Shown piece after piece: positions 6,354 to 56,539 of a stretch of DNA of 61,659 nucleotides. The DNA is from Candidatus Micrarchaeota archaeon CG1_02_55_22 (lineage in GTDB: Archaea; Micrarchaeota; Micrarchaeia; Norongarragalinales; UBA97): assembly GCA_001871595.1 (NCBI GenBank), contig MNVH01000011.1, positions 1 to 61,659 on the forward strand, given 5' to 3'. Below the pieces are notes generated by a model. That model had not been told where the DNA came from. It worked only from the letters and a program-made list of their open reading frames with translations, and searched no databases. How positions within the stretch are numbered: the first letter of the stretch is position 1; each line of letters begins with the position of its first letter. The translations under genes and the position numbers were made by a program.

Positions 6354-6866
6354 ATGAAAACGCTAAAGCCCGCGTTCCGGGCACAGTTGCGAAGAATCTA
6401 TGGCGAGCTTTTAACCGAAGCTCAAGCCGTGCGCCTAGCCCTCGCCTCGAAAGAACCAATAGTGTGCGTCGGCGACGTATCCACCCTCAACCTCACCCGC
6501 GGCGGGGTAAAGCCCATTGTCTCCGTAGTAGATTTCAAGAGCGAGCGCAAGCCGCTCTCCGAGGGCGAGGCTGAAGAGATTCGTGCTCTTGACGCGCGCG
6601 TCTTCCACGCATTCAACCCGCCGGGCTGCATCAGCGGTGAAGCCGCGGGTGCGCTCTCCGACGCTTTAGCCCACGTTAAAAGCCACGGGCCGGCAGTCGT
6701 CATAGTTGAAGGTGAAGAGGACTTGCTGCTATTGCCCGCAATCGTCCTCGCCCCGGACGGGACACTCATATTCTACGGCCAGCCCAAGCAAGGAATCGTG
6801 CTCGAGCGTGTCAATAGTGAGTCGAGGGCGCGAGCGCAAAACTTCTTGGAAGAAGGCTTCGTCTAG
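6354..6866 (+). CDS. GTP-dependent dephospho-CoA kinase (DUF359 family)
   Basis: Motifs IVCVGDVSTLNLTRGGVKPIVSVVDFKSERKP and VIVEGEEDLLLLPAI fit the archaeal DUF359/DPCK pattern. ATG 6354 is preferred over TTG 6324. Confidence 0.6.
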   Translation: MKTLKPAFRAQLRRIYGELLTEAQAVRLALASKEPIVCVGDVSTLNLTRGGVKPIVSVVDFKSERKPLSEGEAEEIRALDARVFHAFNPPGCISGEAAGALSDALAHVKSHGPAVVIVEGEEDLLLLPAIVLAPDGTLIFYGQPKQGIVLERVNSESRARAQNFLEEGFV

Positions 6867-7498
6867 CGTTTGCCGTTTTTCTCTTTGTCCTGCATTGTCA
6901 AGAGCTGGAGCGTTACCGTGTCAACGGGGATTAAGTCTTTCTCGTTTATTCCGAGCTTTTTGAAGAGCGCCATCGCCAACTTCTCGTCGCGCTCGCGTTG
7001 TGAGTCAATGTTCGTCGCCGGCAGTGCGACTTCCACGAGTTCGCCCAAGTCCTTGACGTCGAACACCACGACTGGCAGGTTGACGTGCTTGAAGCTCCAT
7101 ACGCGGTAATCGCGGGAAAAAGCGTACTGATAGCCGAGCGATTCGAGGTTGTCCTCAATTTGCGGCGCGCTGCTCACGTCGAATCCGAGGAATTCTTCTT
7201 CTTGAAGCATGTACGCTTCCGAGATAATAGTCTCTTTCTCAGTTTGCTTGTCCGTTCGTACAAGCATGTACGCGTAGACACCGTTGCCGAAGGGTTTGGC
7301 ATGCACTGCCTCAACGTACTCGCCTCCGCCGGTAAAACGTGCTTTCAAGTCTTTTTCCAGCGCATAAACCGCCTTGTCCGAGTCCGCAATGGGCGCGGTA
7401 TAGCGTACTTCGGGAATCTTCCATTTTAGTTTGTGGCTTTTTGCTTTCTTGCCGTGCCTCACGCCGACGAGCTTGTCCAGAACTTCGAGAATACCCAA
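6863..7498 (-). CDS. CYTH-like domain protein (putative triphosphate tunnel enzyme)
   Basis: The C-terminal half (ESLGYQYAFSRDYRVWSFKHVNLPVVVFDVKDLGELVEVALPA...LFKKLGINEKDLIPVDT) resembles the CyaB/CYTH pattern. No clear N-terminal ExExK motif was seen. Confidence 0.4.
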   Translation of the reverse strand: MGILEVLDKLVGVRHGKKAKSHKLKWKIPEVRYTAPIADSDKAVYALEKDLKARFTGGGEYVEAVHAKPFGNGVYAYMLVRTDKQTEKETIISEAYMLQEEEFLGFDVSSAPQIEDNLESLGYQYAFSRDYRVWSFKHVNLPVVVFDVKDLGELVEVALPATNIDSQRERDEKLAMALFKKLGINEKDLIPVDTVTLQLLTMQDKEKNGKR

Positions 7499-7499
7499 A

Positions 7500-10400
7500 T
7501 CAAGTCACTTCCTTGTACGCGGGTGGCTTGCGGTTGTGCCACCAGAAACCGTACGCGAGCGTGATTAAAATTGCTATCCCCAACCCGCCCAGGGCGAGGT
7601 CCATCCCGTTGCCACCGCCCGACCCGTAAACGCCTGACGCGAGCGCCATTGCGGTAAACCACTTTCCGTTTTCCGCCAGCTGGAGCGCTTTCTCGGCCGC
7701 AGCCCTCTCCGAATCGCTGCCCGCGCGTCCAAGCGCGGCGTCGACGAGTTGTTTAGCATCTTCGGCGAGCGCCGCACTGCGCAACGACAGCTCGCGAGCC
7801 GCCTCCGTAAACGCGGCCGCGCGTCCCGACACAAAGTCGGCGTCGTATTCGTCTGCGACGATGCCACCGCTGCCATCCTCGCGTGCTAGATTAGCTAACT
7901 CACGTTCAAGCTTTACGGCTTTCTTCGCAGACTCCCGTGCAGCAGTTGCGGCTGGAAGCGATTTTGCGTACTCTTCCGCATCTACAAACGCAGCCTCGAC
8001 AGCACGGGCTTCCGCTAGTACGGATTCCCTTATGTTCATGTAGTCTTCTAGTGCCCGCTTGCGCGCCGACTTTTGTGCGGCGGCTTCGGCTTGCGCTTGC
8101 GAGAGTGCCGTGGCGGCTTTTACTGCAAGGCGGATTGATTGGGCGAGGTTTGCTTGCGCGAGCCGGACCGAGTTGGCCGAGTCGGCGAGTATTTGGGCGC
8201 ACGTTCGCCGCAGCACGTAGTCCTTTGAATCGCAATCGTTTTTTGTAACCGAAGCCAGTGACTTCAAGCTGCCTTCCGCGGCCTTTCGTGCGTTCTTGGC
8301 CGCAACGGTCTTTCCTTCGGTTGCCGCGTCAAGCATTTCTTCGAGCGCGGTGGCGAGTGCCTCGTCGTTCAAGTTTGTTGCGGCTTCAATCGCTTGGCGC
8401 GCTTCTTCCTCCAGCGCGAGTGCCTCTACTGGTAATTCGGGTGGTTCTGACGCGATTGCGTCCAATTCGGAGAGCGCTTCAAGCGTTTTTCCTTCCTTGA
8501 GCAATCCAGTTATCATTGCTTTTTGTGTGGCGTTTGCCGATGATTCGGAGAGCCTTGCTTGCGCGAGTGCTCCGAGCGGGTCGCAGTACGCCTCGTAATA
8601 TATCCTCTTTTTTTCGTCTTGGCCCAGCCTGAATGATACGAAAGCGTAGTGTCTTCCGCCGGAGTCGAACTGCGTTACCTTGTTCAAGTCCTGTCCCTTA
8701 ACCGTGAGCTTGCTGTTGGGGCACGCCGCGGGTTCGTCTATTGTAACCGTGGCCGAAGGTATCTCAACATCCAGAGAGTTTTCCACTTCGTACTCGTAGG
8801 AAATGGAGCTGTCAGTCGCGCTGATTATACTCTTCTTTGCGTGCAGTGGGTCGCGTACTAGGAAAGTGGCTTGTACAATGTTCTCTCCCTTGGCAAGCGG
8901 AACGTGCATCACCAATTCTTTACCGTTGTAGGAGTATGCGGTTGCCCCATCGGCAGACGCGGTCTCGGCGGAATAGTTTGTCGTTACCGTACCCGTTACG
9001 TCTTCGAACGCAGTTATGATGAACAAGCGCGTTACTACCGCGCTTTGAGCGTCGGCGCGTTCGACGGTTGTTTTTGACGAGCCGAGTTGTGCCGCCTTGC
9101 CGCGCGCGGTTACGGTAACCCAGTGAAGCTGGCCTTTTGCGGTAGTGTTTATCGTCATTCTTCCCGCAATAATGCTTGTTCCCGTGCTCGCTTGCCAGTC
9201 AACTATGCGGCCGGGCAACTTTCCAACGTAGAGTTCAACTCCTTGCGCGGGTCCGAGCGAGTTTTCGGCTGAAAATACTGCGTGAAATAATGTTTCTTCT
9301 CCGACCTGCGCTTCTTCGGCCGTAATCGTGGTCTCAAGTTTTTCTTGCAAGTGGGCTTCAACCAGGCTACGTGCTAGGGCAAGGTAGTTGGTGGTGATTG
9401 TGGTGAGTCGGGCGCGTGCTTGGCGCAATCGTCCGACGCTTTCGGGCAGGGGGCCGCGCATAGTGAAAAGCGTTTTTATTTCTTCTAACTCGTTGCGTTC
9501 CGCGTCGCTTGAAGGAATTGCTTCTTCGGCTTCGAACACTACCTCAGCGTATTCTGTCGCAGCTTTAGCCAGCACGCTTTCCTCTATCGCATCTAACCGT
9601 AGGAGTATCTGCGTTGCCGTTTCCGCGGTACCGGTTTCAAGCGCTTCGTTCGCCGCGGCGAGCGCGACTTCTTCTTCAGCAACGGACAGCGCGTCAGTTT
9701 TTGCGCGTAATACTAGGTCTTTGAGTTCGACGAGCCGTGCGCGTGCGGCTAGTACGGGCGCGTCGGGTTCACTTGCTAGCGCAGTGGCAGCCGCTATGTC
9801 TTTTAAGGCGCGGGCGAAGGACTGGATTCTTTCGCCGCGGGGCCTTTCCTCCGCGTTGGCCAGCGTTGCTTTCACGCGTTCGAGCAGTATCTTTGCTGCT
9901 TCTGCCGAGTATGTCTTGCTTGACAGCTCCCGCCGGGCCGCTTGTTCGGCGTTGGCCATTGCCGCGAGCGTGGCAGTTGAGAGCTGTGAGTCGAGTTGTT
10001 TGCTTGACGCGTCTATTGAGAGTACGATGCTGCGTGCCGCTGACAGGTTCGATATCGCTTGCCGGTAAAGCGCGGTTGCCTTTGCCGTGCTGCCGCGTGC
10101 TTTGGTTTTCTGCGTCCTTTCCGCGGAATCGCCCGTCGCCTGCGCTCGCGCCAACAATTGCCGCGCTTCAAGGAGTTGTTCACGGTACGATTTCGACTGG
10201 CTGCTTGTTGCGGTCCTCAATCCCGCGTCGAGCATTTCGAGGGATTCGGGCGAAATGTCTTCGAGGCGTTCTTTCTCCGAGTACTCCAAGGAGAGTTCGG
10301 CGAGCTTGTATTCACGTTCGAACGTTTCGCGGCCGTCCGCCGCTTCCTCTTCCAAGAGTATTAGCGCGTCCGAAGCCTTGTTGTCTAGAGTGATGACTTC

Positions 10401-11072
10401 GCGCAGGATTGAGTCTTCACCAATGAGGTCGCGCACTGGCTTTGAGAAGTCGCCTTTGCCTTCAATGGTCTTGTCCCACGCGTGCGTTACTCCTACCGCC
10501 GTTGTTTGAATGCGCGCGCCAAGGCTCTTAGGGTTAGTCGGGTTTTCTACCTGGGCCTTGATCGATTCGGCTTCCTCGAGAACACCAGTCGCCGCTCCCT
10601 CATAGCCCGCGTCCCGCGCGGCTTCGAGTTCGGCGAGTTTGGCGTCGGCTACGCCGAATGCTTCGCGCACGCTTCGCACGGCGAGCGAGAGCGCGGTGCT
10701 GCCTTTCATACTGCATTCGTAGGATAGATAGCTGAGCGTGAGCGGTGCGGCAGGGGTTATGGCGGCGTAGTCGCGTTGTATTTGTGCGAGCGTCCTTGCC
10801 GAGTCGAGCTCGAGTTTCGCCTTATACGCCAAATCAATTGCTGGAGCGAATTCTGGCCGCGCGCTTATACCGTTAGGCAGGTTGAATGGCTTTACGTAGT
10901 TGCCGCAGTATTCAGTAGTAAGGTAGTAGTAGGATATGTCGGGCGGCTGGGGTTGGAATAGGTGTGAGTATTCGGAGAGAGCGGCAGCGTTGGACGCGAG
11001 TAACAGGATTGCCAGAAGCAGGGCGGGCTTCAACTCGCGCACAATCCTCCCGTGCAGTTCGTGCTGTTGCAC
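7500..11072 (-). CDS. Giant (about 1190 aa) alanine-rich, largely helical surface protein with a C-terminal membrane anchor
   Basis: N-terminal signal-like segment RELKPALLLAILLLASNAAALS. Two long Ala/Glu/Leu-rich helical regions flank a beta-rich middle part (VELYVGKLPGRIVDWQ...YYEAYCDP). The C-terminus has a Gly-rich stretch, a TM helix (LALGGLGIAILITLAYGFWW) and a basic tail. The GTG start at 11072 overlaps the upstream pilin-like gene; the in-frame GTG at 11042 is an alternative. Confidence 0.7.
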   Translation of the reverse strand: MQQHELHGRIVRELKPALLLAILLLASNAAALSEYSHLFQPQPPDISYYYLTTEYCGNYVKPFNLPNGISARPEFAPAIDLAYKAKLELDSARTLAQIQRDYAAITPAAPLTLSYLSYECSMKGSTALSLAVRSVREAFGVADAKLAELEAARDAGYEGAATGVLEEAESIKAQVENPTNPKSLGARIQTTAVGVTHAWDKTIEGKGDFSKPVRDLIGEDSILREVITLDNKASDALILLEEEAADGRETFEREYKLAELSLEYSEKERLEDISPESLEMLDAGLRTATSSQSKSYREQLLEARQLLARAQATGDSAERTQKTKARGSTAKATALYRQAISNLSAARSIVLSIDASSKQLDSQLSTATLAAMANAEQAARRELSSKTYSAEAAKILLERVKATLANAEERPRGERIQSFARALKDIAAATALASEPDAPVLAARARLVELKDLVLRAKTDALSVAEEEVALAAANEALETGTAETATQILLRLDAIEESVLAKAATEYAEVVFEAEEAIPSSDAERNELEEIKTLFTMRGPLPESVGRLRQARARLTTITTNYLALARSLVEAHLQEKLETTITAEEAQVGEETLFHAVFSAENSLGPAQGVELYVGKLPGRIVDWQASTGTSIIAGRMTINTTAKGQLHWVTVTARGKAAQLGSSKTTVERADAQSAVVTRLFIITAFEDVTGTVTTNYSAETASADGATAYSYNGKELVMHVPLAKGENIVQATFLVRDPLHAKKSIISATDSSISYEYEVENSLDVEIPSATVTIDEPAACPNSKLTVKGQDLNKVTQFDSGGRHYAFVSFRLGQDEKKRIYYEAYCDPLGALAQARLSESSANATQKAMITGLLKEGKTLEALSELDAIASEPPELPVEALALEEEARQAIEAATNLNDEALATALEEMLDAATEGKTVAAKNARKAAEGSLKSLASVTKNDCDSKDYVLRRTCAQILADSANSVRLAQANLAQSIRLAVKAATALSQAQAEAAAQKSARKRALEDYMNIRESVLAEARAVEAAFVDAEEYAKSLPAATAARESAKKAVKLERELANLAREDGSGGIVADEYDADFVSGRAAAFTEAARELSLRSAALAEDAKQLVDAALGRAGSDSERAAAEKALQLAENGKWFTAMALASGVYGSGGGNGMDLALGGLGIAILITLAYGFWWHNRKPPAYKEVT

Positions 11073-11284
11073 TCGTTATTGTACCCGCAGGCGCATCCCG
11101 TCGTGGCTTCGCCCCTGATTCGCGCTTCCTGTGGGCAGGCGCCGGTCTCGATGTGTCCAGTATTGTTTACTACCGTGTCGTTTATCGTGCTGATGTTGCC
11201 TTTGCTTACGGTGATTATCGCTACCGCAAAGAGCACCACCGCCGCTACGAGCAGCAGGTATTCAAGGCTGGATTGTCCGCGCAT
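11030..11284 (-). CDS. Class III signal peptide (archaeal type IV pilin-like) protein with a six-cysteine C-terminal module
   Basis: MRG/QSSLEYLLLVAAVVLFAVAIITV matches the archaeal prepilin QxSxEYxxL pattern. The C-terminus is GACPQEARIRGEATTGCACGYNNECNSTNCTGGLCAS. GGGAGA lies just upstream of the ATG. Confidence 0.7.
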   Translation of the reverse strand: MRGQSSLEYLLLVAAVVLFAVAIITVSKGNISTINDTVVNNTGHIETGACPQEARIRGEATTGCACGYNNECNSTNCTGGLCAS

Positions 11285-11362
11285 TTTTCTCCCAGCAATT
11301 AGTTTTCTGGGTTATTATAAGCGTTATTCTTGTACTCGCTTTTTGCAGTATCCGTAGAACTA

Positions 11363-12588: not shown

Positions 12589-12837
12589 CTAGATTAGGAA
12601 GAAGAGTACCATGGTTATGAAGATGGCTACTGCGAATTGGGTTGAGACGTAGGCGAGCGCTGCTAGGGCAAGGGGCCCGCCTATCGCGTATAATTGCAGG
12701 TCGGGGTAGTAGGTGGCGACGTGTATGCCGACGACGATTCCGAGCGTGTATACTAGGAAGATGAACGCCGTAAACTTGCGGACTGTTTCCGAAATGTTGT
12801 CTATGAGGCGCTGGGCGAGCTCGTTCAGGATTCCCAT
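12589..12837 (-). CDS. Small hypothetical membrane protein
   Basis: 82 aa with two or three hydrophobic helices (FIFLVYTLGIVVGIHV, GGPLALAALAYV, FAVAIFITMVLFFLI). No family recognised. Confidence 0.5.
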   Translation of the reverse strand: MGILNELAQRLIDNISETVRKFTAFIFLVYTLGIVVGIHVATYYPDLQLYAIGGPLALAALAYVSTQFAVAIFITMVLFFLI

Positions 12838-12894: not shown

Positions 12895-15600
12895 CTATTT
12901 GTACCGTAGGAATGCGCCGATGCCGCCGAAGGTGCCTTTGAATGTGGAGCCTTCAGCGGTTTCGATTGAGACGCGGTCGATTGGTATGCCGGCGGTTTCA
13001 GCGATTTTCTGCAGTTCGTCGGCGAGGTTGTTGCTTTCTTTGGTTTTGAGTTTTCCGCCGCACTCGCACTCTTCCTCATCGTTGTCCTCGTCGCTCATCA
13101 GCGTTTTTTCATTGTTGCAGTTGGCGCACACGAGCTTGTTCTCGTACAAGTAGAGGTCTTCGGCCAGTAGCAACCGTTCGGCTTGGCCGCTTTCAAGCGT
13201 TTTCTTTACCTGTCGGTAGCCGTACGTTGCCAAGCCGTTGGTGACGACTTCCTTGATGAACCTGTCGACGAGCTGTTTCTCGACGACTGCCTCGTGCTCT
13301 TTCATGAGGTCGCTGCCCTTGTCGATGACTTCGCGCAAGCCGTACTCGTCCGTGTAGCTGGTGTCCACCATTCCCAAAATCTTAAGTTGGTAGTTGTACG
13401 TCTTTTCCTTGAGGAAATCCTCCTTAGCCGGGCCGGGGCCGCCGACGATGACGCCTTTCATGTTTTTATAGGTTAGAAAAGAGTCCATTGCTTCGCCGAT
13501 GCGCTTCTGGTAATACTCGATTCCTTCCTCGCGCAAGCGCCCGTAGCGTTGTGACGAGTTGTGGGCGATTATCCCTTGGGCGATAAAGTTCTCGTTGCCG
13601 GGTATTTCAAGGTCGTAGAAGTTTATTCCTTCGGCGGGTGCGTTTTCTATTGATTCAATGCGGGCAATGGTGGCATCGGATTCGGCGTATTGGTTGAGCA
13701 TTTCCTTGTTTTCTTCGGGTAGTGTGGATGCGAGTTCGAGCAGGTAGTTTCTTCCAAGCAGCCGCGTGCCTGAGAGAAAGGGCTGGAATCTTGCCCGAAC
13801 AATTGCGTTCAGTCCTTTGTTTTTGACGAGCTTGGCGGTAAACTTGCCGTTTATTGGTGCATGGTTGGCTTGGCTTTTGCTCGTATTGGCTTCAAGCAGC
13901 CTTTCTAGTTTGGCGTTCTTTTCAGTGCTTGTTAAGCCGATCTGTACTTTGAACGCTTCAAGTTCGTTCCTTCCGCGAAACACTATAGTGTATTGCGGTT
14001 TGTAACGGGTTTTTTTGTGTAGTACGGAGGTAACAATGCCGAAGCGTTGTAGCATTAGCGCTATTTGTCGGACAAGTCTTTCGTTTATCATGCTTAAGCC
14101 AATTCCTCGCACGCTGACGTTTCCTTCCGCGTCAAAGATGCCTCGCAGGAATGCTGATGCGATTTCGTCAGGGGCGGACATTATACGCGCAGGAATGCTT
14201 CGCGCCAAGCCTTTGGCAGTGGCTTCGGGAAAGTTGGTTCGTAAGTATTCTGTTAGTGCCAAACTGTAGGCGCGTGTCTCGATGTATCTTTCACCGAAGC
14301 CCGTAGAACGCCGCCTTTCGCGTAAGCTAGTATTAACGCCGAGGTTCTCTGTTAGTATTTCCCGGTAATAGTTCGCCACTTCCAGACGGTCTTCGTAGAG
14401 TGTTATTCGGTTGCGTTCAGTGGTACCATCTCCTATCAGGTAGCCGAGTAGTTGCGCGAGTTCTGGTGTAAGGTTTGTTGGCAGGTTTGCGCCGCGGACT
14501 GAAACGTTTTCGTAGAATTCTTCAGGCAACCCGTAAAACGAGACGAGTTCTCCGAGTTTTTGAATGCTTTGGCGCTTCCCGGTTTCAAGGTTTGATATGC
14601 TCATCTGTTCACAGCCGAGAGATTCGGCTACTGTTTGTTGAGTCAGGCCGCGGGTTGTGCGGACCTTTTTCAGTATCAAGCGCCCGGCTTCCGAAACCAC
14701 TGCTTCTACTCGAGGCATTGTGAGCGGGGGGTTTATTGAAGTTATACGAAGTTTGCTTGTAAGTAGGAGCAGGTCGCCCTTTTTGAGTTCGCACGCGAGC
14801 TTTTCCTCCGTTCCCGTCTCAGTCTCACAGAAGAACCGGTGTTCGTTGGTTGCTATTAATTCGGTTGTCGGACTGCGAGTCCGAATTCTAAGCGCGTGGG
14901 GTGCAGTTCTAGCGTAAACGTTTGTGCACTCAGCAGGTTCAATCATTTGTTTTTTGAAATTATAAGAGAGTACGGACTCTCCGGGCTTAACGTCGCGTAT
15001 TTCTTTTATAGTTCCATCCGCCATTTGGACTAGCGTCTTTTCGTGTAGACACTGTCCGCCTTTGTGAGTTTTGCTGTGCGCGGTGGAGTGGATTTGCTTG
15101 ATTACCTTGATTTGTTTGCCGACGAGCGCGGCAATGGTTGCTTCCTTGCCATCCATAACAACCAGGCCGTACGTGTCGGTGGTGTTGATAAGCTCGTTGA
15201 GTGGTTCGAGTACGAACATTGATTCGCACCGATAGAATTGTGTGACAATGGGCACGGGCGGGATGACGGAATAGAGTTCGACGTCGGGACGGCCTTCGAC
15301 TTCCGAGACGTTGCCTGCAAAGACTGCCATGCCCATATCGGGCGTGGTTTTGAACGTCTTTAGGTATTGCATTATCTTGTCGAGCGCGGCCTGTACGTTT
15401 TTCTTTGTCGAGGCGCTCTTGATGTTGCTTGCCTGCCCGTACTCCTCTTTGAGTTTACCAGTAATGTCGCTTATGGGGTAGCCGGGCGTCATATAGACGC
15501 TTACTAGTTCGGTGCCGCGGCCGCGGAACTTCTTTAGCGCCTCAACTTGTTTCTTGAATTCGTATAACGCGAGTGACTTATTGTCGTTGCTTGCAGCCAT
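12895..15600 (-). CDS. prf1: Peptide chain release factor aRF1, interrupted by an intein
   Basis: The N-extein has NIKS (GQASNIKSASTKKN) and ends ...THKGGQ. The C-extein begins SSQRYGRLREEG... and carries a CxxC...CxC mini zinc-ribbon. The exteins total 403 aa (183 + 220). Confidence 0.9.
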   Translation of the reverse strand: MAASNDNKSLALYEFKKQVEALKKFRGRGTELVSVYMTPGYPISDITGKLKEEYGQASNIKSASTKKNVQAALDKIMQYLKTFKTTPDMGMAVFAGNVSEVEGRPDVELYSVIPPVPIVTQFYRCESMFVLEPLNELINTTDTYGLVVMDGKEATIAALVGKQIKVIKQIHSTAHSKTHKGGQCLHEKTLVQMADGTIKEIRDVKPGESVLSYNFKKQMIEPAECTNVYARTAPHALRIRTRSPTTELIATNEHRFFCETETGTEEKLACELKKGDLLLLTSKLRITSINPPLTMPRVEAVVSEAGRLILKKVRTTRGLTQQTVAESLGCEQMSISNLETGKRQSIQKLGELVSFYGLPEEFYENVSVRGANLPTNLTPELAQLLGYLIGDGTTERNRITLYEDRLEVANYYREILTENLGVNTSLRERRRSTGFGERYIETRAYSLALTEYLRTNFPEATAKGLARSIPARIMSAPDEIASAFLRGIFDAEGNVSVRGIGLSMINERLVRQIALMLQRFGIVTSVLHKKTRYKPQYTIVFRGRNELEAFKVQIGLTSTEKNAKLERLLEANTSKSQANHAPINGKFTAKLVKNKGLNAIVRARFQPFLSGTRLLGRNYLLELASTLPEENKEMLNQYAESDATIARIESIENAPAEGINFYDLEIPGNENFIAQGIIAHNSSQRYGRLREEGIEYYQKRIGEAMDSFLTYKNMKGVIVGGPGPAKEDFLKEKTYNYQLKILGMVDTSYTDEYGLREVIDKGSDLMKEHEAVVEKQLVDRFIKEVVTNGLATYGYRQVKKTLESGQAERLLLAEDLYLYENKLVCANCNNEKTLMSDEDNDEEECECGGKLKTKESNNLADELQKIAETAGIPIDRVSIETAEGSTFKGTFGGIGAFLRYK
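13558..15051 (-). mobile_element. Intein (498 aa) with LAGLIDADG homing-endonuclease and XRE-type HTH modules
   Basis: Cys1 in CLHEKTLVQMADG, block B TNEH, LAGLIDADG motifs LLGYLIGDGT and FLRGIFDAEGN, block F FYDLEIPGNENFIA, and terminal GIIAHN followed by Ser+1. Boundaries were checked at codon level: GGC GGA CAG|TGT at 15060-15049 and CAC AAC|TCG at 13563-13555. Confidence 0.85.
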
Positions 15601-15650: not shown

Positions 15651-16958
15651 TCACGGTTTTTCAGGCGTCATCACGTCGAAGCCCGTGTAGCGTCTCAACG
15701 CGGGGGGAACGGTAACTGTTCCGTCCTCGTTTTGGTAGTTTTCCAGTATAGCGACCATTGCGCGGGAAGTGGCCATGAGCGTGTTGTTGAGCGTGTGCAG
15801 AAAAGCCTTTTCCGCGTCGTCGGCGCCTTGCTTGCCGACGCGGTATTTCGCATTCAAGCGTGTTGCCTGATAAGCAGTACAGTTGCTGCAGCTTCCGACT
15901 TCGCGGTACTCCTTGTTGCGCGGAAACCAAGCCTCGACGTCTTGTTTCTTAGCTGCTACTATTCCGATATCGCCCGTGCAAATCTCGAGTATCTGGTAGG
16001 GTATTCCGAGCGCTTGCCAGAACGCTTCCGAATTGGCAAGAATTTCGTCGAAGTACTTCCACGATTCTTCGGGCCGGCAGAAGACGAATTGTTCGACTTT
16101 GTTGAACTGGTGCATGCGGAAGAGGCCTTTAGAATCCACGCCGTGGCCTCCGATTTCCTTTCTGAAGCACGCGCTCAATCCCGCGTACTTCAAGGGCAGC
16201 TCTTTGGCGTCAACGACTTCGTCCTTGTACATCGCGGCGAGGGGGTGTTCGCTCGTCGCAATCATGTACTCGTCCTTGCCGTCGAGCTTGTAGATTACGT
16301 CTTCAAAATCGCTCAAACTCGTGACGCCCTCGTAGGCATCGCGCCGCAGCATCATTGGCGTATTGACCAGCGTGTAGCCGCGTTCGGAGAGCAAATCAAC
16401 GGCCATGCGTATTAGGGATTGTTCGAGTATGGCGAGTTGGCCTTTAATGTAAACGAATCCTTGTCCGCTGACTTTAGCGGCGCGTTCGAAGTCCGTCCAA
16501 CCGTTCTTTTGGCATAACTCTCCGTGTGGTACCAGCTCGAAGTTCTTCTCGGTTGGCTCACCGTGCTTGCGTATGACGACGTTGCCCTTCTCGTCAGCGC
16601 CGTAGGGCACGCTTTCATGCAACAAGTTCGGCAGCCGCATCAAGTAGTAGCGCATCGTTTCTTGCTGGCCCGCGGCGGTTTCCTCCGCCTCTTTTATCTT
16701 GGCCGGCACGTCCGCCGCCTCTTCTTTCAACGCGGCAATTTTCTCTGGCGCGAGCTTGTCTTTTATTGCCTGCGCCACTTCGTGGCTCGCCGTGTTGCGC
16801 CTAGCCCGCAAGGCCTCGATTTCGGCGTTGAGCTTGCGGTGTTCCTCGTCGAGCTTGACGAGTTCATCGAGCCACGCGCTCTTTTCAGGATCCTGCCGTT
16901 TGGCCAAGTTAGTTTTTACCGTGTCGATATTGCCGCGTATGAACTTTAGGTCCAGCAT
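15651..16958 (-). CDS. serS: Serine--tRNA ligase
   Basis: An N-terminal coiled-coil arm (MLDLKFIRGN...), class II core motifs (FRKEIGGHGVDSKGLFRMHQFNKVEQF) and C-terminal GTVTVPPALRRY. Confidence 0.9.
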   Translation of the reverse strand: MLDLKFIRGNIDTVKTNLAKRQDPEKSAWLDELVKLDEEHRKLNAEIEALRARRNTASHEVAQAIKDKLAPEKIAALKEEAADVPAKIKEAEETAAGQQETMRYYLMRLPNLLHESVPYGADEKGNVVIRKHGEPTEKNFELVPHGELCQKNGWTDFERAAKVSGQGFVYIKGQLAILEQSLIRMAVDLLSERGYTLVNTPMMLRRDAYEGVTSLSDFEDVIYKLDGKDEYMIATSEHPLAAMYKDEVVDAKELPLKYAGLSACFRKEIGGHGVDSKGLFRMHQFNKVEQFVFCRPEESWKYFDEILANSEAFWQALGIPYQILEICTGDIGIVAAKKQDVEAWFPRNKEYREVGSCSNCTAYQATRLNAKYRVGKQGADDAEKAFLHTLNNTLMATSRAMVAILENYQNEDGTVTVPPALRRYTGFDVMTPEKP

Positions 16959-26371: not shown

Positions 26372-27940
26372 CTAGGCGAAAGCTAGAGAATTTTGTGTTA
26401 CCGGTTTAGTTGTCGCGTGCGACGCCTCAAACTCAGTTAACACTCGTACTATCTCGTTTTCTATTCTTGCCTGCGCCTCAAGCGTGCTCGCGCCGATGTG
26501 CGGTGTGAAAACCACGTTGTCGAGCTCGTGTAGTTTGCCGCGCTGCAACGGTTCTTCCTCGAAAACGTCGAGCGCTGCCCCGGCCAGTTTGCCGCATTCG
26601 AGCGCCTCGGCGAGGGCTATAGAGTCAACTACTTTGCCGCGGGAGGTGTTCACGAGGAAAGCGCCGTCCCTCATTGTCGCGATGCGCCTTCGGTCAAGCA
26701 GTTTGTTTGTTTCGGATGTTAGTGGTACATGCAGCGTCACGATGTCGGATTCGCCGAGCAGTTCTTCCAGTGAATTCTTTTGTTCCACGCCCACGTCTTT
26801 AAAGTCTTCAGGGTGCAGGAACGGATCGAACCCGACGATTTTGACGCCGAACGCTTTGAGGCGTCGTGCCACCGCACGGCCGATTCGGCCTACGCCAACT
26901 ATCCCTACGGTTTTTCCGCCGAGTTCGACGCCGGTGAAATAGTTCTTGCGCCACTCTCCGCCGGCGGTAGAGGCGTGGGCTTGAGGGATGCGGCGCAACA
27001 AAGATAGCATCAAGCCTATGGTCAGTTCTGCAACGCTCTCCGTGCTTGCGGTGGGCGTGTTGACCACGCGTATGCCGCGTTTTTCAGCGTGTTTCACGTC
27101 GATGTGGTCTAAGCCCACGCCGAAGCGGGCGACGAGCCGTAAACGACTGCTCGCATCAAGTATTTCCGCGTCGAGCTTCTCATTGCCTCTGTAGACGAGC
27201 GCGTCGAATGCGGGTAGCAGTTGTAGGAGTTTGTCTCGGGGCAAGTCGCCGTAAGCCGCGACATTAAACCCGTTATTTTCAAGTTTTTCTGCGTTTATAT
27301 TGCCCACAACGAGCACGCGCGGCTTTCCAGAGATTTTTTCCTTGTGTTCAATGCTTTTTCGTGCTACTTCGCACAAATCCCCTCGGACCTTCACGTTGGC
27401 AACTACTTCGAGCACGGGCTTGGCGTTGAATGCTATTGACAGCCCCGCCGCGTTCATCATTTCCGCGTCGTTCGCCCCGTCGCCGACCACTATTGTCTCG
27501 GCTCGTGTAAAGCCAAATTCTTCTTGCAGGCGCTCGACGAAGGCTCGCTTTGCGTTTGCGTCAACAAGGGGTTCGGCGTGGCCGGTTATCAAGCCGTCTT
27601 CTTCAGTAGCCTTATTCGCCGTCCACGCCGCGGCGCCCAGTGTTGTCCCTATCCTTTCGGCGAAAAAATCGAAGCCGCCTGATGCCAGCGCTATGGTGAA
27701 TCCAGCGTCCTTGAGTATTCTTATGGCTTCCGGCGCTTCCTTGCGCGGAACCACTCGTTTGCCTTGTTCATAAAACTCTTCCGCGGGCATGCCTTTCACT
27801 GCGCGGAACCGTTGGGCCATCGCGTCGCGGAACGTTGTTTCGCCGCTCATTGCCTTTGCAGCGGTGCCTTGCGTCTGCGGAAAGGAGTCCCAGAACTCGG
27901 CGTCGCAAAGCGTTCCCTCAATATCGAAGACTATCAGCAT
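26372..27940 (-). CDS. Fused phosphoserine phosphatase (HAD, SerB-like) / D-3-phosphoglycerate dehydrogenase (SerA-like)
   Basis: The N-terminal about 200 aa has HAD motifs (VFDIEGTL..., IALASGG, VGDGANDAEMMNAAGLSIAFNAKP). The C-terminal about 310 aa is a 2-hydroxyacid dehydrogenase (GIVGVGRIGRAVARRLKAFG, NTSRG, FTPHIGAST). No ACT domain is evident. Confidence 0.75.
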   Translation of the reverse strand: MLIVFDIEGTLCDAEFWDSFPQTQGTAAKAMSGETTFRDAMAQRFRAVKGMPAEEFYEQGKRVVPRKEAPEAIRILKDAGFTIALASGGFDFFAERIGTTLGAAAWTANKATEEDGLITGHAEPLVDANAKRAFVERLQEEFGFTRAETIVVGDGANDAEMMNAAGLSIAFNAKPVLEVVANVKVRGDLCEVARKSIEHKEKISGKPRVLVVGNINAEKLENNGFNVAAYGDLPRDKLLQLLPAFDALVYRGNEKLDAEILDASSRLRLVARFGVGLDHIDVKHAEKRGIRVVNTPTASTESVAELTIGLMLSLLRRIPQAHASTAGGEWRKNYFTGVELGGKTVGIVGVGRIGRAVARRLKAFGVKIVGFDPFLHPEDFKDVGVEQKNSLEELLGESDIVTLHVPLTSETNKLLDRRRIATMRDGAFLVNTSRGKVVDSIALAEALECGKLAGAALDVFEEEPLQRGKLHELDNVVFTPHIGASTLEAQARIENEIVRVLTEFEASHATTKPVTQNSLAFA

Positions 27941-34989: not shown

Positions 34990-35745
34990 TTATAATCCTT
35001 TGCCGGAACCGAATGCGTCGGTGACGCCCTTTATTAATGCAGGACAGTTCGCCTTGTCAAGTTTTTTGAGCCGTCCGTGCTCTTTCGCTTTGATGAGTAT
35101 TGTGGTGGCGATTTCTTTGGCGCGCCTGCGGAGCACGCTTTGTCCAAGGGTGCCTTTGAATACTGGGTCGATTGCGCCGAGCGGCACTGTCTTGACTTTC
35201 AGGCCGGCGAGGACGATGTCGATGTTCATCGCGGCCTCGACGCCGAATTCCGGCAATAGCTTTAGTTTGAGCGCGGTTTTGCGTTTCATTGCGCGTTGCC
35301 CGCTTAGTGGGGATTCAGTGATTGCCGCGTTGACTTCCGGAAAAAGGAGGCGCATGAGCGGCCTGTAAGCAAGTTCGGTGAATGATTGTGGGTACGGCGA
35401 GCTGAAGGACGCTATTGTCACGTCGCACTCGCCTTTCTGTACGGGCGCGACGAGTTTTTTGAGCATTGCCGGCGAGAGGTTTTTGATGTCGGCGTCGACG
35501 AAGAGGACGATTTGCCTTTCCGCGCGTGCGAGCCCTGTCGTCATGGCGCGGCCTTTGCCGCGTCTTGCCCGGATTATTTGTGCATCGGTTTCTCGCGCTC
35601 GCTCAACGGTCTTGTCGGTTGACTCCGAGTCGGCAAGTATTATTTGTGCTTTAGGGAATGCTTTTCGTGCGGTTCTGATTGTTCGTGCTATTGTTTCTTG
35701 TTCGTTGTACGCGGGTATTATTACCGAGATTTCGTTAGCTTGCAA
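34990..35745 (-). CDS. GT81-like (GpgS/MpgS-like) family-2-fold glycosyltransferase, stand-alone paralogue
   Basis: Motifs ISVIIPAYNEQETI, VLFVDADIKN and FTELAYRPLMRLLFPEV...PLSGQRA...FGVEAAMNID. It parallels the N-terminal domain of the upstream gene. Confidence 0.55.
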   Translation of the reverse strand: MQANEISVIIPAYNEQETIARTIRTARKAFPKAQIILADSESTDKTVERARETDAQIIRARRGKGRAMTTGLARAERQIVLFVDADIKNLSPAMLKKLVAPVQKGECDVTIASFSSPYPQSFTELAYRPLMRLLFPEVNAAITESPLSGQRAMKRKTALKLKLLPEFGVEAAMNIDIVLAGLKVKTVPLGAIDPVFKGTLGQSVLRRRAKEIATTILIKAKEHGRLKKLDKANCPALIKGVTDAFGSGKGL

Positions 35746-37117
35746 TTATCATCAGCTCTGGCAGGGATTTTATGTTTACCGTGGCGAACTCGAGCGTCTT
35801 CTCGCCGATTGCCACGGGCAGTCCGACCTTCGCGAACATTTCTTGGTCGGATTCCGAGTCGCCTACTGCTATTGTTTCTTCGGGCTTGGCTTTGAATTTC
35901 CGCATCAGTGCTATTGCGGCCTTGCCTTTGGAGTAGACATAGCCGTTCTGTGAGAGGTAGTTAGGTATCTCGGTCTTTCCGGTGATTTTGCCGTTCTTTT
36001 CTTCGAGCGTCGGGCATACTATAGCGTCGAAGAGCGCGGGGTCGAAGCAAGAGGTAATGATGTGGCGGAATGCGTAGGACACTATTGCGGTCTTATAGCC
36101 CATGCGTTTGAGGTAGACGAGCGTCTCGTCGGCGAATTGACGTTTGCGGAGCTTCTTAGATGCTGCTCTGAGTTCGCGGCCGTTAAGTCCGCGTAGCATG
36201 GCTGCGATGCGGCGCGTGAGCTCGCGTTCGGTGATTCTGCCTGCATAGTAGTTCTTTCTTTCGTGGGCGAGTTTTTCTTTGAACTCGAATTCTTCTGCGA
36301 GCGCGGTAATGCTGCTTTCTGCGATGAGGGTGTTGTCAAAGTCGAGGATGATGAGCTTGTGTTTTTGCGCGAGGAAGCCCGCTTTCTGTAGTATCGTGCG
36401 TATGACCTGTTTGGATGTTGTGGAGAGTTCATTGAGCGGCCGGTGCTTGTGGTTGACTCGGCCGATGTTGACTTCTAGGATGCGTTCGCCTTGCTTGGTT
36501 GATTCCAGGACTATTTCCATGTCGATTCCCCAATCGGTTGAGACGTCGAGTTTTTGGAGGAATTCTTTTCTGATTGCGAACTGCCCGCTTAGCGGTTGTC
36601 TTAGAGTGACTTCGGGGAAGACGAATTCGAGCAACGGTTTTGCAACTAGCTCGGTGATGCGCCCGCCGTCCCGGTCGAACGTGGCCTTGCATACGCTTGC
36701 TTCGCCGTTCATAAGCGGCATAGCCAGCGCTTCGATTGCGGTTTGTGAGACGTTCTCGTAGTCGGCGTCGATAAATATCAGTATGGAGTTGCGGGCGGCG
36801 CGCGCCCCGGTCATTATGGCAGCGCCCTTGCCCTTGTTTTTTGCGTGGCGCACCACGCGTGCGCCTGCCGCGGTGGCTACTGCAGCGGAGTCGTCTGCCG
36901 AGCCGTCGTCGACAACGACGACTTCGCTTACTAGCGGAGAGGTACGGCACTGTTTTACTACGCGTTCTAGTGTTTTGGCTTCATTATAGCACGGGATTAT
37001 TACCGTGGCTTTCTCCTGCAGGAAGAGGTATTTGAATGCGGTGAGTGCCTTGGCCGCGTTTTTTTCTAGGGAGAACGCTCGGCGGGCTTTTCTCAGCAGT
37101 TTATCCAGTTTGTTCAA
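35735..37117 (-). CDS. Glucosyl-3-phosphoglycerate-synthase-like (GT81) glycosyltransferase fused to a HAD (SerB-like) phosphatase
   Basis: N-domain: VIIPCYNEAKTLERVV, IFIDADYEN and GGRITELVAKPLLEFVFPEV..RQPLSGQFAIRKEF...WGIDMEIVL...VNIGRVNHKHRPL. This matches my recollection of the GpgS signature. C-domain: LIILDFDNTL...VGDSESDQEMF (HAD motifs I and IV). Confidence 0.6.
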   Translation of the reverse strand: MNKLDKLLRKARRAFSLEKNAAKALTAFKYLFLQEKATVIIPCYNEAKTLERVVKQCRTSPLVSEVVVVDDGSADDSAAVATAAGARVVRHAKNKGKGAAIMTGARAARNSILIFIDADYENVSQTAIEALAMPLMNGEASVCKATFDRDGGRITELVAKPLLEFVFPEVTLRQPLSGQFAIRKEFLQKLDVSTDWGIDMEIVLESTKQGERILEVNIGRVNHKHRPLNELSTTSKQVIRTILQKAGFLAQKHKLIILDFDNTLIAESSITALAEEFEFKEKLAHERKNYYAGRITERELTRRIAAMLRGLNGRELRAASKKLRKRQFADETLVYLKRMGYKTAIVSYAFRHIITSCFDPALFDAIVCPTLEEKNGKITGKTEIPNYLSQNGYVYSKGKAAIALMRKFKAKPEETIAVGDSESDQEMFAKVGLPVAIGEKTLEFATVNIKSLPELMIIAS

Positions 37118-46220: not shown

Positions 46221-47429
46221 TTATTCGGCGAACACGGTTTTCTCGATTATTTTCTTGATTTTGTCCGCGTCGTAGGCGAGGCGCACGAGCGTGGTGTGCC
46301 CGCGGATGCCTTTGCCGCTTTGTACTGTGTTGATGAGGCCGAGCATCTCGAGCTCGGAGAGGTACTCGCGGTACCAGCGTGAGGTGCGCGGTTGTTTTCC
46401 GGCTTTTTTTGTCAGGCTTGCGTAGCGTTCGTAGATTTCGCCCGAGAAGTATAGTTTCTCACCGCCGTCTTCGACGAGTTTCTTGTAGTGGACGTCTTGT
46501 GCGAGGGTTGCGAGCGCGTACAAAAGCAGCTGTTGGTGTTCTGGCAGGGTGCCGACGACTTCGAAGGCCTTGTCCTCGTCGGCGGCCTTGCGGGCTTCTT
46601 CGACTTGTGCGTCGACTATGGTTTTGGCGTCGCGTCTCTCGACGAGTTCGCCGGCGCGGAGCATGAGCGAGAGCGCGTAGCGGGCGTCGCCGTTCTCTGA
46701 CGCTGCGATTGCAGCTGCAAGGTTTATTGCGCTGTCGTTTACCACGCCTTTCTCGAACGCGGTCTCGCAGCGGTTGCGCAGTATTCCTTGCAATTGTGCC
46801 GCGTTGTAGGGTTGGAATACTATTTCCTCTTCGCAAAGCGAGCTTTTCGAGCGGGGGTCGAGCCGGTTCTTGAAGTTGACGCGGTTTGATATGCCGATTA
46901 CCGAGACGCTTCCCTTGCCGAGGTCGTCGTTGGCTCTAGTAAGCGTGTAGATTAGGTTGTCTAGGTCGGAGATAAAGTCGATTTCGTCGAGGATCACTAG
47001 GACGTGCTTTCCGGTTGTGTCTTTGTTCTTCGGGCCCTCTATCCAGTCGAGGAGTTCTTCGTAGAGCACCGTGAAAGAGTGGCCGGTCTTGGCGAATGAG
47101 GGCTTGAACGCGGTGATGACTCTTTGGAGTATCTTGTACCGCGAGTCGTAGACTCTGCAGTTCATGTAAACGGCGTGGACGTGGTCTTCTTTGCGTTCCT
47201 CGATTTTTTCAAGGACCTGCTTTACTGACGAGGTTTTCCCGGTGCCGGTCTTGCCGTAGATGAAGAGGTTTTTGGCCTTCCTTTGCTGGAGGACGGGCGA
47301 GACTGCCACCATGATGCGACGGATTTCGTCTTCGCGGTATAACAAGGACTCTGGTAGGTAGTGTGGCGAGAGGACTTCGCGGTCTGAAAATACGCCTTTC
47401 CCAGCAAGTATTTCGTCAAAACTAGGCAA
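46221..47429 (-). CDS. cdc6: Orc1/Cdc6 replication initiation protein
   Basis: Walker A LFIYGKTGTGKTSSV, Walker B VLVILDEID and a C-terminal winged helix (...GKGIRGHTTLVRLA). Confidence 0.9.
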   Translation of the reverse strand: MPSFDEILAGKGVFSDREVLSPHYLPESLLYREDEIRRIMVAVSPVLQQRKAKNLFIYGKTGTGKTSSVKQVLEKIEERKEDHVHAVYMNCRVYDSRYKILQRVITAFKPSFAKTGHSFTVLYEELLDWIEGPKNKDTTGKHVLVILDEIDFISDLDNLIYTLTRANDDLGKGSVSVIGISNRVNFKNRLDPRSKSSLCEEEIVFQPYNAAQLQGILRNRCETAFEKGVVNDSAINLAAAIAASENGDARYALSLMLRAGELVERRDAKTIVDAQVEEARKAADEDKAFEVVGTLPEHQQLLLYALATLAQDVHYKKLVEDGGEKLYFSGEIYERYASLTKKAGKQPRTSRWYREYLSELEMLGLINTVQSGKGIRGHTTLVRLAYDADKIKKIIEKTVFAE

Positions 47430-55075: not shown

Positions 55076-56539
55076 TTACCGCCTTTTTCGTTTGCCTGCG
55101 AACCTTTTCTTTCCAGCGAAGCTTTTGTCCCTTGATGGCGCGCGGTCGAAGCGCGGTGTCAAAGGTTGTGGGCGTGACCCGGTAACGGGGAAGACTACGG
55201 TTTCTTCACCCCACTTGTACAACTCGTATTCTAGAGCGTTTGTCTCCAAATCGCGGACTTCGATGACGGGCCGTGCCAAGTCTTGTTCCCGCATTCCGGT
55301 CGGTGTCCGCACTATGAATGAGAGGACGTATGTTTTCGAGGGCCTTCCCTTTTCGATGAAGATTATGGTGTCGATTATTTGGGGTATGATTCCCAAATCT
55401 ATCTTGCCGAGGAAGCGTTGAAGGGCATCGATTGGCTTGGCTGCGTGTACTACGCCGAGCATTCCTACGCCGGACATGCGCAAGTCCGCGAAGGTGGTGA
55501 AGTGTTGGGGCTTTCTTACCTCGTCGAATATGGTGTAGTCCGGCCTGACGAGCAGGAGGATGTCTGTAGTCTCTTCAAAACTGCCTTCCAAGGGCGCGTA
55601 TTGTGTTACTTCTGGCCCGACTTGCAAGTCGCGCGGCTGTTCGAGCGTTTTCACTATCTTGCTCTTTGAAGAGTAGTAGTCCGCCATTGCCGTGACGAAA
55701 GTGCTCTTGCCGCTTCCCGGCGGCCCTGCGACAATCATTCCCTCGGCGGTTTCCTCAAGGCGCTTGCGCAGCTTGGGCGATATTTCGTAGTCCGAGAGCT
55801 TCATGTGCACCAGCGGCCTTACTATTGTCAGTTCTGGCGCTTCGGAGAACGGGGGTTTGGTGAAGACGATGCGGTACTCTCCGGCTTGAATCACGGTCGC
55901 GCCTTCCTTGTCGAGCTCGATGAAGCTGCGTGGCACGCGCTTGGAGTATTCCACTGCCTCGCGCACCATCGCGGATATTTCTTTGCTTGAAAACTTTTTG
56001 TCGGTTATCTCCTTGAGTACGAATTCTCCAGGCCGGCCTATCTTTGCCTTTGCGGGCAGGCCTTCCTTGATGTGTACGCTGAGCACGCCGGGGTGTTCGA
56101 AGAATTTGGCGAGCGATAACTGCACTGGCTCTTTCATCGGTTCTAGGTAGATTACGTCGATTCCTTCGGCTTCGGCCACTTGGCGCTGGATTTTGTCCGT
56201 CGTTAGGAGCGTTGCGCTGAATGCCTTGGCGAGGCCGCGAATCTTTGAGTCTATCTCGCCGAAACGTGCGCGTTCTATTTCGAACGCGCTCGGCCGCTCG
56301 CCCGCGAATTCGAGCGCTACCGTGCCCGCCTTTGCTAGTTCTGAGAGCTTTTTGAGTTCGGCAAGGCCTGAGACCCCGATTTCCCGACCGCTGTTGGCCT
56401 GGTACTCGAGTTCGGCGATGACGCTGTAGCTGACAATTATTTTTACGGGGTGCCCGCCAGCCCACTCTTTCTCGACGAGTTCGCTTATGCGTCCGTCAAT
56501 GAGTACGCCGGTGTCCGGGACTATTACTTTCTGGTTCAA
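55076..56539 (-). CDS. PIN-domain / P-loop ATPase / KH-domain protein (COG1855-type 'PilT-family ATPase')
   Basis: N-terminal PIN (VIVPDTGVLIDGRISELV), Walker A VAGPPGSGKSTF, and a C-terminal KH-like part with a basic tail. Confidence 0.6.
   Translation of the reverse strand: MNQKVIVPDTGVLIDGRISELVEKEWAGGHPVKIIVSYSVIAELEYQANSGREIGVSGLAELKKLSELAKAGTVALEFAGERPSAFEIERARFGEIDSKIRGLAKAFSATLLTTDKIQRQVAEAEGIDVIYLEPMKEPVQLSLAKFFEHPGVLSVHIKEGLPAKAKIGRPGEFVLKEITDKKFSSKEISAMVREAVEYSKRVPRSFIELDKEGATVIQAGEYRIVFTKPPFSEAPELTIVRPLVHMKLSDYEISPKLRKRLEETAEGMIVAGPPGSGKSTFVTAMADYYSSKSKIVKTLEQPRDLQVGPEVTQYAPLEGSFEETTDILLLVRPDYTIFDEVRKPQHFTTFADLRMSGVGMLGVVHAAKPIDALQRFLGKIDLGIIPQIIDTIIFIEKGRPSKTYVLSFIVRTPTGMREQDLARPVIEVRDLETNALEYELYKWGEETVVFPVTGSRPQPLTPRFDRAPSRDKSFAGKKRFAGKRKRR

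Follow-up and report, generated by a model that had tools for sequence, protein, structure and literature searches.

A predicted membrane-anchored envelope protein family of Candidatus Micrarchaeota and its pilin-like neighbour in one narrow lineage

A 61.6-kb stretch of DNA from Candidatus Micrarchaeota archaeon CG1_02_55_22 (contig MNVH01000011.1, positions 1 to 61,659, in the following called the window) encodes a small pilin-like protein and, overlapping with its coding region, a large protein of close to 1180 residues with a putative N-terminal signal peptide and a single C-terminal transmembrane (TM) helix. A preliminary description of this locus had read the two genes as a dedicated unit that could build a novel cell-surface fibre or stalk. 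We find that, as far as can be judged from sequence, the underlying observation is largely correct, whereas the interpretation as a two-part fibre fails the test of conservation. The large protein appears to define a family that is restricted to Candidatus Micrarchaeota, a DPANN lineage of tiny symbionts, and the pilin-like gene appears to have been added next to it in a single narrow lineage. With modest confidence, we favour the view that the large protein is a lineage-specific structural component of the envelope, serving as spacer, anchor or contact protein, and that the pilin-like gene is a recent neighbour.

Results

Distribution and conservation of the large protein family

Relatives of the large protein were recovered in an exhaustive HMMER search of 1.84 billion representative sequences, where only 22 clusters matched at E ≤ 1e-3. 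Their members, mostly 1080–1260 residues long, align colinearly over the full length of the protein at ~19–30% identity, and all named ones are listed as 'hypothetical protein' under Candidatus Micrarchaeota, Micrarchaeia or Norongarragalinales, in agreement with the earlier suggestion that the DNA comes from a compact-genome archaeon. It was through this search that the family emerged: the large protein gave no match when GTDB genomes were scanned, and word-index homology searches, conducted either with the protein or with a profile of 23 aligned sequences, returned the query itself and near-identical sequences alone. With the large protein, this result applies to the 8000 candidates admitted, a limit that was reached probably on account of words rich in Ala, Glu and Leu.

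The preliminary description could not place the protein in any family, and our searches lead to the same result. No Pfam model matches any of the 23 aligned family members at E ≤ 0.01, searches with the single protein of the window yielded nothing significant in Pfam, in NCBIfam or among PDB sequences, and the family profile retrieves from PDB sequences helical-bundle noise alone (syntaxin, E 0.003). NCBI accessions of family members are not mentioned in the paper texts searched. A match to an S-layer, a tetrabrachion-like or an SMC-like family, named earlier as grounds for reassessment, was not obtained either; an SMC-like identity, which would call for halves of an ABC-type ATPase head at both ends of the helices and for a cytoplasmic location, was rejected, as there is no Pfam or NCBIfam match to an ATPase and as an extracellular location is indicated by the conserved cysteine pairs together with signal peptide and TM helix.

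The N-terminal 240 residues constitute the best conserved stretch in the conservation profile of the family. The consensus of the alignment retains an S-E-Y-S-x-L-L motif right after the signal peptide, Cys46 and Cys110 are invariant, further cysteine pairs in the second of two predicted β-sandwiches and in the C-terminal helices are mostly conserved, and the TM anchor is kept. By comparison, the CYTH-like protein encoded by the adjoining downstream gene is, at 39–56% identity, far better conserved than the large protein, which has the appearance of a fast-evolving surface protein.

Conservation of the gene neighbourhood

Four contigs, namely the window, L001 (ENA), L088 and L093 (JGI), have the pilin-like gene ahead of the large gene. 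The small protein is 84–88% identical across them, and for the large protein L001 shows 87% identity. The large gene is additionally found in ten diverged lineages (L082, L083/84, L085, L086/87, L089, L090, L091, L092, L094 and L095), and in none of the ten is a pilin-like open reading frame (ORF) present upstream of it or anywhere in the fetched flanks, where it was sought in gene calls, with a regular expression for the motif and with a hidden Markov model of the small protein run against all six-frame ORFs. When checked in related genomes, as had been advised, the pair is thus retained among near-identical contigs alone, which argues against a dedicated two-gene unit.

A wider gene order is common to L091, L094 and others. 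It comprises SerRS, aRF1 with an intein, a protein of 82 or 83 residues with two TM helices, the large gene, the CYTH-like gene, DUF359, an AAA_18 kinase and beta-CASP, and the large gene appears to have been inherited vertically within this old housekeeping neighbourhood. In L091 and L094, the gene of the 83-residue membrane protein is located directly upstream of the large gene. Because this wider order is shared while in the window the corresponding gene is separated from the large gene by truD and the pilin gene, the pilin-like neighbour of the large gene is best described as a lineage-specific insertion in one narrow lineage. The 83-residue protein had been considered as a second pilin, a candidate that was rejected since it is a homologue of the two-TM protein of the window. 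Most likely, the pairing of the pilin-like and the large gene reflects a local accident of gene order or a young accessory association and not a conserved machine.

The sole neighbour that is conserved in every lineage examined is a CYTH-like gene coding for 198–244 residues. In 11 out of 11 lineages it directly follows the large gene, in L085 in inverted orientation, in L089 behind an inserted toxin–antitoxin pair and in L091, L094 and L095 overlapping it. With weak profile matches in the PDB to PH1819 and to a class IV adenylate cyclase, and with TIGR00318 remaining below its cut-off in eight out of ten of these proteins, the product appears to be a divergent cytosolic CYTH/TTM-like (class IV adenylate cyclase-like) protein.

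Other proteins were observed around the large gene in individual lineages. Directly upstream of it, L085 (931-2448) and L089 (2404-3990) encode secreted proteins of 505–528 residues with repeated 'CRYSNDG...W' modules, and L092 (3249-3941) encodes a CARDB protein of 230 residues with a Cys-rich end (…CAKGCLNGACRN) that loosely recalls the tail of the pilin-like protein. Some relatives encode, several genes farther downstream and behind DUF2070 and NMD3, secreted proteins of ~1200–1350 residues from another, unrelated family (L083:11711-13561, L085:10218-11110 and L089:11028-11411), which has no homologue in the window as searched with tblastn.

Topology and predicted structure of the large protein

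The features by which the large protein had been recognized as an anchored surface protein were recovered in our analysis. Its N-terminus is signal-peptide-like by hydropathy, and its C-terminus comprises a Gly-rich stretch, a single TM helix and 11 residues of basic tail (HNRKPPAYKEVT), from which we infer a Sec-exported type I protein that is anchored to the membrane at its C-terminus. The sequence ahead of the TM helix (GSGGGNGMDLALGG) is devoid of PGF and no NCBIfam model for PGF-CTERM or another sorting signal matches, on which grounds the protein was rejected as an archaeosortase substrate, in which a sorting motif directly adjoins the C-terminal TM helix on its N-terminal side.

An AlphaFold2 (AF2) model calculated from the alignment of 23 sequences reached a pLDDT of 81.7 and a pTM of 0.44, compared to a pLDDT of 41 with an input of two sequences. 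In this model, ~505 residues of helices are followed by ~250 residues of strands (570–819) that form two sandwiches, by another ~315 residues of helices and by the TM helix (Table 1), which is consistent with the two long helical regions around a β-rich core that had been described before. The longest helices span 44–55 residues and are interrupted by loops. A crude register scan, which is not a dedicated coiled-coil predictor, found no persistent heptad register and a single heptad-like window of 35 residues, and an all-against-all comparison of 10 segments by hhalign revealed no clear internal repeats, with a weak signal of C1 versus C2 (probability 38%); there may be a faint hint of an internal duplication in the membrane-proximal helical region. 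The lack of a heptad register and of clear repeats in these searches argues for a multi-domain ectoprotein with helical bundles, and the earlier wording of a coiled, rod-like protein does not describe the model well, which contains no demonstrable long coiled-coil rod.

Tetrabrachion of Staphylothermus marinus contains a continuous coiled-coil stalk of ~70 nm. Both are archaeal surface proteins of very large size that are anchored to the membrane at the C-terminus and contain long helical regions, but the helices of the large protein do not exceed ~55 residues, are separated by loops and do not show a persistent register. A tetrabrachion-like or other long coiled-coil stalk, which would be expected to have hundreds of residues in unbroken helix with a persistent heptad or undecad register, was therefore rejected in view of the length of the AF2 helices and the one short heptad-like window.

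In a Foldseek comparison of the model with the PDB, the top matches were to chain E, a luminal subunit, of the oligosaccharyltransferase (OST) complex (6s7o_E and 8agb; chain O in 8b6l) with E-values of 9e-6 to 9e-4 and a probability of 1.0, at a TM-score of 0.14 and a root mean square deviation (rmsd) of 35 Å. Further matches include mu-homology domains, aminopeptidase/LTA4H chains and integrin alpha chains, of which we take the second to concern the N-domain and the third the leg-domain, and the viral library contributed a DUF11 protein. We read these matches as generic Ig-like sandwich domains and not as signs of homology.

Properties of the pilin-like protein

The description of the 84-residue protein as pilin-like with an archaeal class III signal peptide is well supported. 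The leader junction, MRG/QSSLEYLLLVAAVVLFAVAIITV, can be read directly from the sequence, the N-terminus MRG/QSSLEYLLL fits residue for residue the motif QxSxExxxL of Pfam PF04021 (Class_IIIsignal), and the Pfam model scores 24.2 bits, above its cut-off of 23.7 (E 3.2e-5), together pointing to a type IV pilin-like protein of the PF04021 type. A regular expression scan identified it as the sole protein with a class III signal peptide in the window. The predicted mature protein of ~81 residues would consist of a hydrophobic helix of ~24 residues, a linker rich in glycosylation sequons (with five N-x-S/T sequons in the 84-residue protein) and a Cys-rich end of 33 residues, where six cysteines are spaced as C-x13-C-x-C-x5-C-x4-C-x4-C, and it probably carries a small, disulfide-rich and glycosylated head. 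Inhibitor cystine knots have loop lengths of about 3–7, 3–8, 0–7, 1–4 and 4–13 residues and a knotted connectivity. The spacing of 13/1/5/4/4 does not fit these lengths, for which reason such a knot was rejected and the tail is no longer described as Cys-knot-like. The word-index homology search returned as relatives of the small protein exclusively copies that are 84–88% identical, to which a metagenome scan added one more near-identical copy, and in the same searches the six-Cys end has no relatives beyond these copies.

PF04021/DUF361-type proteins of archaea include EppA-processed pilins of Methanococcus maripaludis. The protein described here shares with this type its leader, the hydrophobic helix, the small size and the N-glycosylation sequons; it is unlike them in its six-Cys end, in the position of its gene between truD and a large envelope gene and in the lack of peptidase, ATPase or platform genes in the window. 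As noted in the preliminary description, no type IV pilus ATPase (ArlI/PilB-type), platform protein (ArlJ/PilC-type) or prepilin peptidase (PibD/EppA) is encoded nearby, which holds for the entire 61.6 kb, and such genes could sit elsewhere in the genome. The only match to a T2SSE domain, 44 kb away (55076-56539, minus strand), is an ATPase domain of this type fused to a PIN domain, a domain make-up that is unlike that of pilus assembly ATPases.

Gene boundaries, selection and transcription

Compared to L001, at a dS of ~0.5–0.8, dN/dS values are 0.18 for the small gene, 0.13 for the large gene and 0.06 for the downstream CYTH-like gene. Both ORFs are genuine genes under purifying selection, and the same evidence makes the downstream gene a real one. 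The extent of the overlap between the pilin-like and the large gene, described before as 43 nucleotides (nt; 11030–11072) with a large protein of 1190 residues, required revision. An overlap of this length would demand that translation starts at the first in-frame GTG (11072), which is unlikely. In the gene call on record the large gene starts at GTG 11042, overlapping by 13 nt, and in L001 it is called from a TTG equivalent to 11033, which results in a 4-nt TTGA overlap with the stop of the pilin gene; the overlap thus amounts to 4 or 13 nt and the large protein to 1177–1180 residues.

Likely control elements precede the pilin-like gene (Table 1). The box TTATAATAA is the likely promoter of the whole unit, and GGGAGG within the end of the pilin gene possibly acts as ribosome-binding site of the large gene. 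In most loci of relatives, a TTTAAA-like box or a near variant is found ~35–50 nt before the start of the large gene when ~100 nt upstream are scanned. No box of the TTTAAA type precedes the large gene in the window or in L001, where this stretch is pilin coding sequence. Because of the short overlap, the lack of a box of its own ahead of the large gene, the box TTATAATAA and GGGAG ahead of the pilin gene, and the start of the CYTH-like gene right after the stop of the large gene, the three genes are probably contained in one transcript that runs from 11284 to 6863.

Table 1. Positions of the main features of the locus in the window (all on the minus strand)
Feature	Position	Strand	Basis or remark
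82-residue two-TM protein, no family assignment	12589-12837	-	Homologues in L091 and L094, phmmer 1e-19 to 1e-22
TATA-box-like TTATAATAA, candidate promoter	11312..11320	-	~28-36 nt upstream of pilin-like ATG
GGGAG, Shine-Dalgarno-like motif	11289..11293	-	4 nt upstream of ATG at 11284
84-residue pilin-like protein	11030..11284	-	ORF list, Pfam PF04021, dN/dS
Class III signal peptide MRG/Q of pilin-like protein	11276-11284	-	Sequence motif
Hydrophobic N-terminal helix of pilin-like protein	11204-11275	-	
Six-Cys C-terminal domain of pilin-like protein	11039-11137	-	Cys positions
GGGAGG within end of pilin gene	11046..11051	-	3 nt before GTG 11042, 12 nt before TTG 11033
Large gene, predicted envelope protein	7500..11042	-	1180 residues from GTG 11042, or 1177 from TTG 11033
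Putative Sec-type signal peptide (residues 1-21, ...ASNAAA/LSEYSH)	10980..11042	-	Hydropathy, family consensus
N-terminal all-helical domain (residues 63-567)	9342..10856	-	AF2, conservation profile
Two β-sandwich domains (residues ~570-690, 694-819), Cys774/Cys820 pair	8586..9335	-	AF2
Membrane-proximal helical region (residues 824-1139), Cys937/Cys948	7626..8573	-	AF2
Gly-rich linker (1137-1146), TM helix (1148-1169), basic tail, predicted cytoplasmic (1170-1180)	7503..7634	-	Sequence, AF2
211-residue CYTH/TTM-like protein, predicted cytosolic	6863..7498	-	Start 1 nt past stop of large gene

Further features of the window

The aRF1 gene (12895-15600, minus strand; 901 residues in total) contains an intein that carries LAGLIDADG and HTH domains, and an intein-bearing aRF1 is found at the same place in L091 and L094. 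SerRS (15651-16958, minus strand) has its best match among GTDB species representatives at 56% identity, in small contigs that bear the label Methanomicrobiales, and many bacteria rank next at ~40%; because of this low best identity, the source organism appears to have no close species representative in GTDB. Two gene fusions were observed on the minus strand, one of a HAD phosphatase with a D-2-hydroxyacid (phosphoglycerate-type) dehydrogenase (26372-27940) and the other of a family-2 glycosyltransferase with a HAD hydrolase (35735-37117). A Cdc6/Orc1 gene (46221-47429, minus strand) is followed by a gap of ~570 nt to the next gene (48003), which is a candidate replication origin.

Discussion

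According to the reading that we favour, the signal peptide of the large protein would be cleaved and ~1125 residues would reside outside the membrane, as expected because of the signal peptide, the conserved cysteine pairs and the C-terminal TM helix. A conserved helical head, with the invariant cysteines probably forming a disulfide, would be followed by two Ig-like β-sandwiches with a second cysteine pair and by membrane-proximal helices with a third, and the protein would be anchored by a flexible Gly linker, the TM helix and the basic tail. The membrane-proximal helices and the sandwiches may keep the head at a height of ~10–25 nm over the membrane, within or at the pseudoperiplasm and S-layer, where the protein could act as spacer, anchor or contact. 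The pilin-like gene would have been inserted together with truD and would now supply the promoter.

The envelope of Micrarchaeota provides a setting for such a role. A pseudoperiplasm of 20–25 nm was observed in a cultured Micrarchaeon (bioRxiv 10.1101/2021.04.28.441871). For SLP_Mh, the S-layer protein of Micrarchaeota, no clear anchor is apparent, and among the options considered by its describers is a second protein, a stalk with a TM anchor (Gfrerer et al., bioRxiv 10.1101/2021.04.28.441871). In a later survey, S-layer proteins of Micrarchaeota are described as MSTP-like sandwich proteins, and anchoring in archaea often proceeds via accessory proteins (bioRxiv 10.1101/2024.05.28.596244). 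The large protein appears not to be the lattice protein itself, yet its topology is that expected of an anchor or a spacer.

Several observations weigh against this assignment. Under the names of those cultured, acidophilic Micrarchaeota where the S-layer has been studied, no family member was detected, and because of this a link to that S-layer could be drawn by analogy only. The pTM of 0.44 makes the relative arrangement of the domains in the AF2 model, and hence the height above the membrane, uncertain. With another secreted protein occupying the upstream slot in three lineages (L085, L089 and L092), the large protein may have a variable secreted partner. Finally, a search for RNA runs or proteome data covering the locus, whose sequence derives from groundwater metagenomes, found none.

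Among the alternatives, a role as host-contact adhesin of an ectosymbiotic DPANN archaeon fares best, although we consider it rather unlikely. The head would in this case bind to the envelope or lipids of the host and the pilin would be one of several interchangeable secreted partners encoded upstream. The restriction of the family to Micrarchaeota, its rapid divergence, which is typical of exposed proteins, the secreted proteins in the upstream slot (the repeat proteins of L085 and L089 and the CARDB protein of L092 with its Cys-rich end) and the frequent occurrence of DUF11, CARDB and Ig-type β-sandwiches in adhesins would fit this role. It is, however, the distal N-terminal head that is best conserved, contrary to the host-driven diversification of a binding end, the gene is single and resides in a conserved housekeeping neighbourhood in the fetched loci and not in a variable island, and no host is known for the lineage.

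A bolder version of the envelope role, to which we assign a still lower probability, would identify the family as the missing membrane-anchored stalk or spacer, an independently evolved analogue of SlaB that sets the pseudoperiplasm of 20–25 nm and either holds the anchorless S-layer or forms a site of host contact, with the pilin-like subunit recruited as operon partner. SlaB, which Gfrerer et al. cite as well, is the membrane-anchored S-layer stalk of Sulfolobales. The likeness concerns architecture only: both proteins combine a signal peptide and β-sandwiches with helices close to the membrane and one TM helix at the C-terminus, and the large protein could plausibly span ~20 nm of pseudoperiplasm likewise. 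Unlike SlaB, it is ~2.5 times larger, carries an extra helical head of 505 residues, shows no demonstrable heptads and has no adjacent SlaA-like partner. SlaB was not among the matches in PDB sequence or fold searches with the large protein, none of which was a dedicated comparison with a SlaB sequence or profile.

The proposal that pilin-like subunit and large anchored protein together build a new surface fibre or stalk, translationally coupled for a fixed proportion, appears improbable on present evidence. It draws on the overlap of 4–13 nt with no separate TTTAAA box before the large gene, on the predicted extracellular location of both products, on the purifying selection acting on both genes and on an arrangement that is kept in four contigs. 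These four contigs are, however, near-identical, none of the ten diverged lineages contains a pilin-like ORF in the fetched flanks, the window encodes no pilus assembly genes and the large protein does not form one uninterrupted rod.

A role of the large protein as principal lattice protein of the S-layer is, in our view, very improbable. Being large, secreted, Cys-poor and sandwich-containing and having a C-terminal anchor, the protein would not be out of place in this function, and there are helical S-layer proteins that carry a TM helix at the C-terminus, such as PS2 of C. glutamicum (bioRxiv 10.1101/2024.05.28.596244). However, the S-layer proteins of Micrarchaeota have been described as PF05123/MSTP-like β-sandwich proteins, whereas none of the 23 family members matches PF05123 or another Pfam model and the protein of the window has no match in NCBIfam, and its 1180 residues contain only four N-glycosylation sequons. 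With SLP_Mh (Micr_00292), which is of the PF05123/MSTP-like type, the large protein has in common the phylum, a size of ~100 kDa and the secretion into the envelope; SLP_Mh differs in its S-layer domains that are detectable by Pfam and in the lack of a clear C-terminal anchor, where the large-protein family has no Pfam match and a clear TM anchor. Barely credible, in turn, is an accessory subunit of the N-glycosylation machinery related to ribophorin I/Ost1, which we take chain E of 6s7o and 8agb to be, since the best Foldseek matches to the human and yeast OST complex and the shared organization as type I membrane proteins with tandem β-sandwiches on the non-cytoplasmic side are countered by the low TM-score and high rmsd of the superposition, by unrelated sandwich domains as next matches, by the lack of any sequence signal (with no Pfam match in any member, the ribophorin I family, presumably PF04597, remains unmatched), by ~820 of 1180 residues that are helical without a counterpart in the OST subunit and by the absence of an AglB gene nearby.

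For the pilin-like gene, our results imply that an operon of 'pilin plus stalk' would be a young local arrangement and does not belong in a list of new surface-fibre systems. On present evidence, the family of the large protein is of modest interest for the cell biology of DPANN archaea and does not constitute a new kind of system. The construction of the DPANN envelope and the contact with hosts are largely unknown, and the anchoring of SLP_Mh was left open by its describers. As a phylum-restricted, syntenic, confidently modelled and so far unannotated family of predicted type I ectoproteins, it offers a concrete candidate for studies of the envelope and the S-layer of these organisms.

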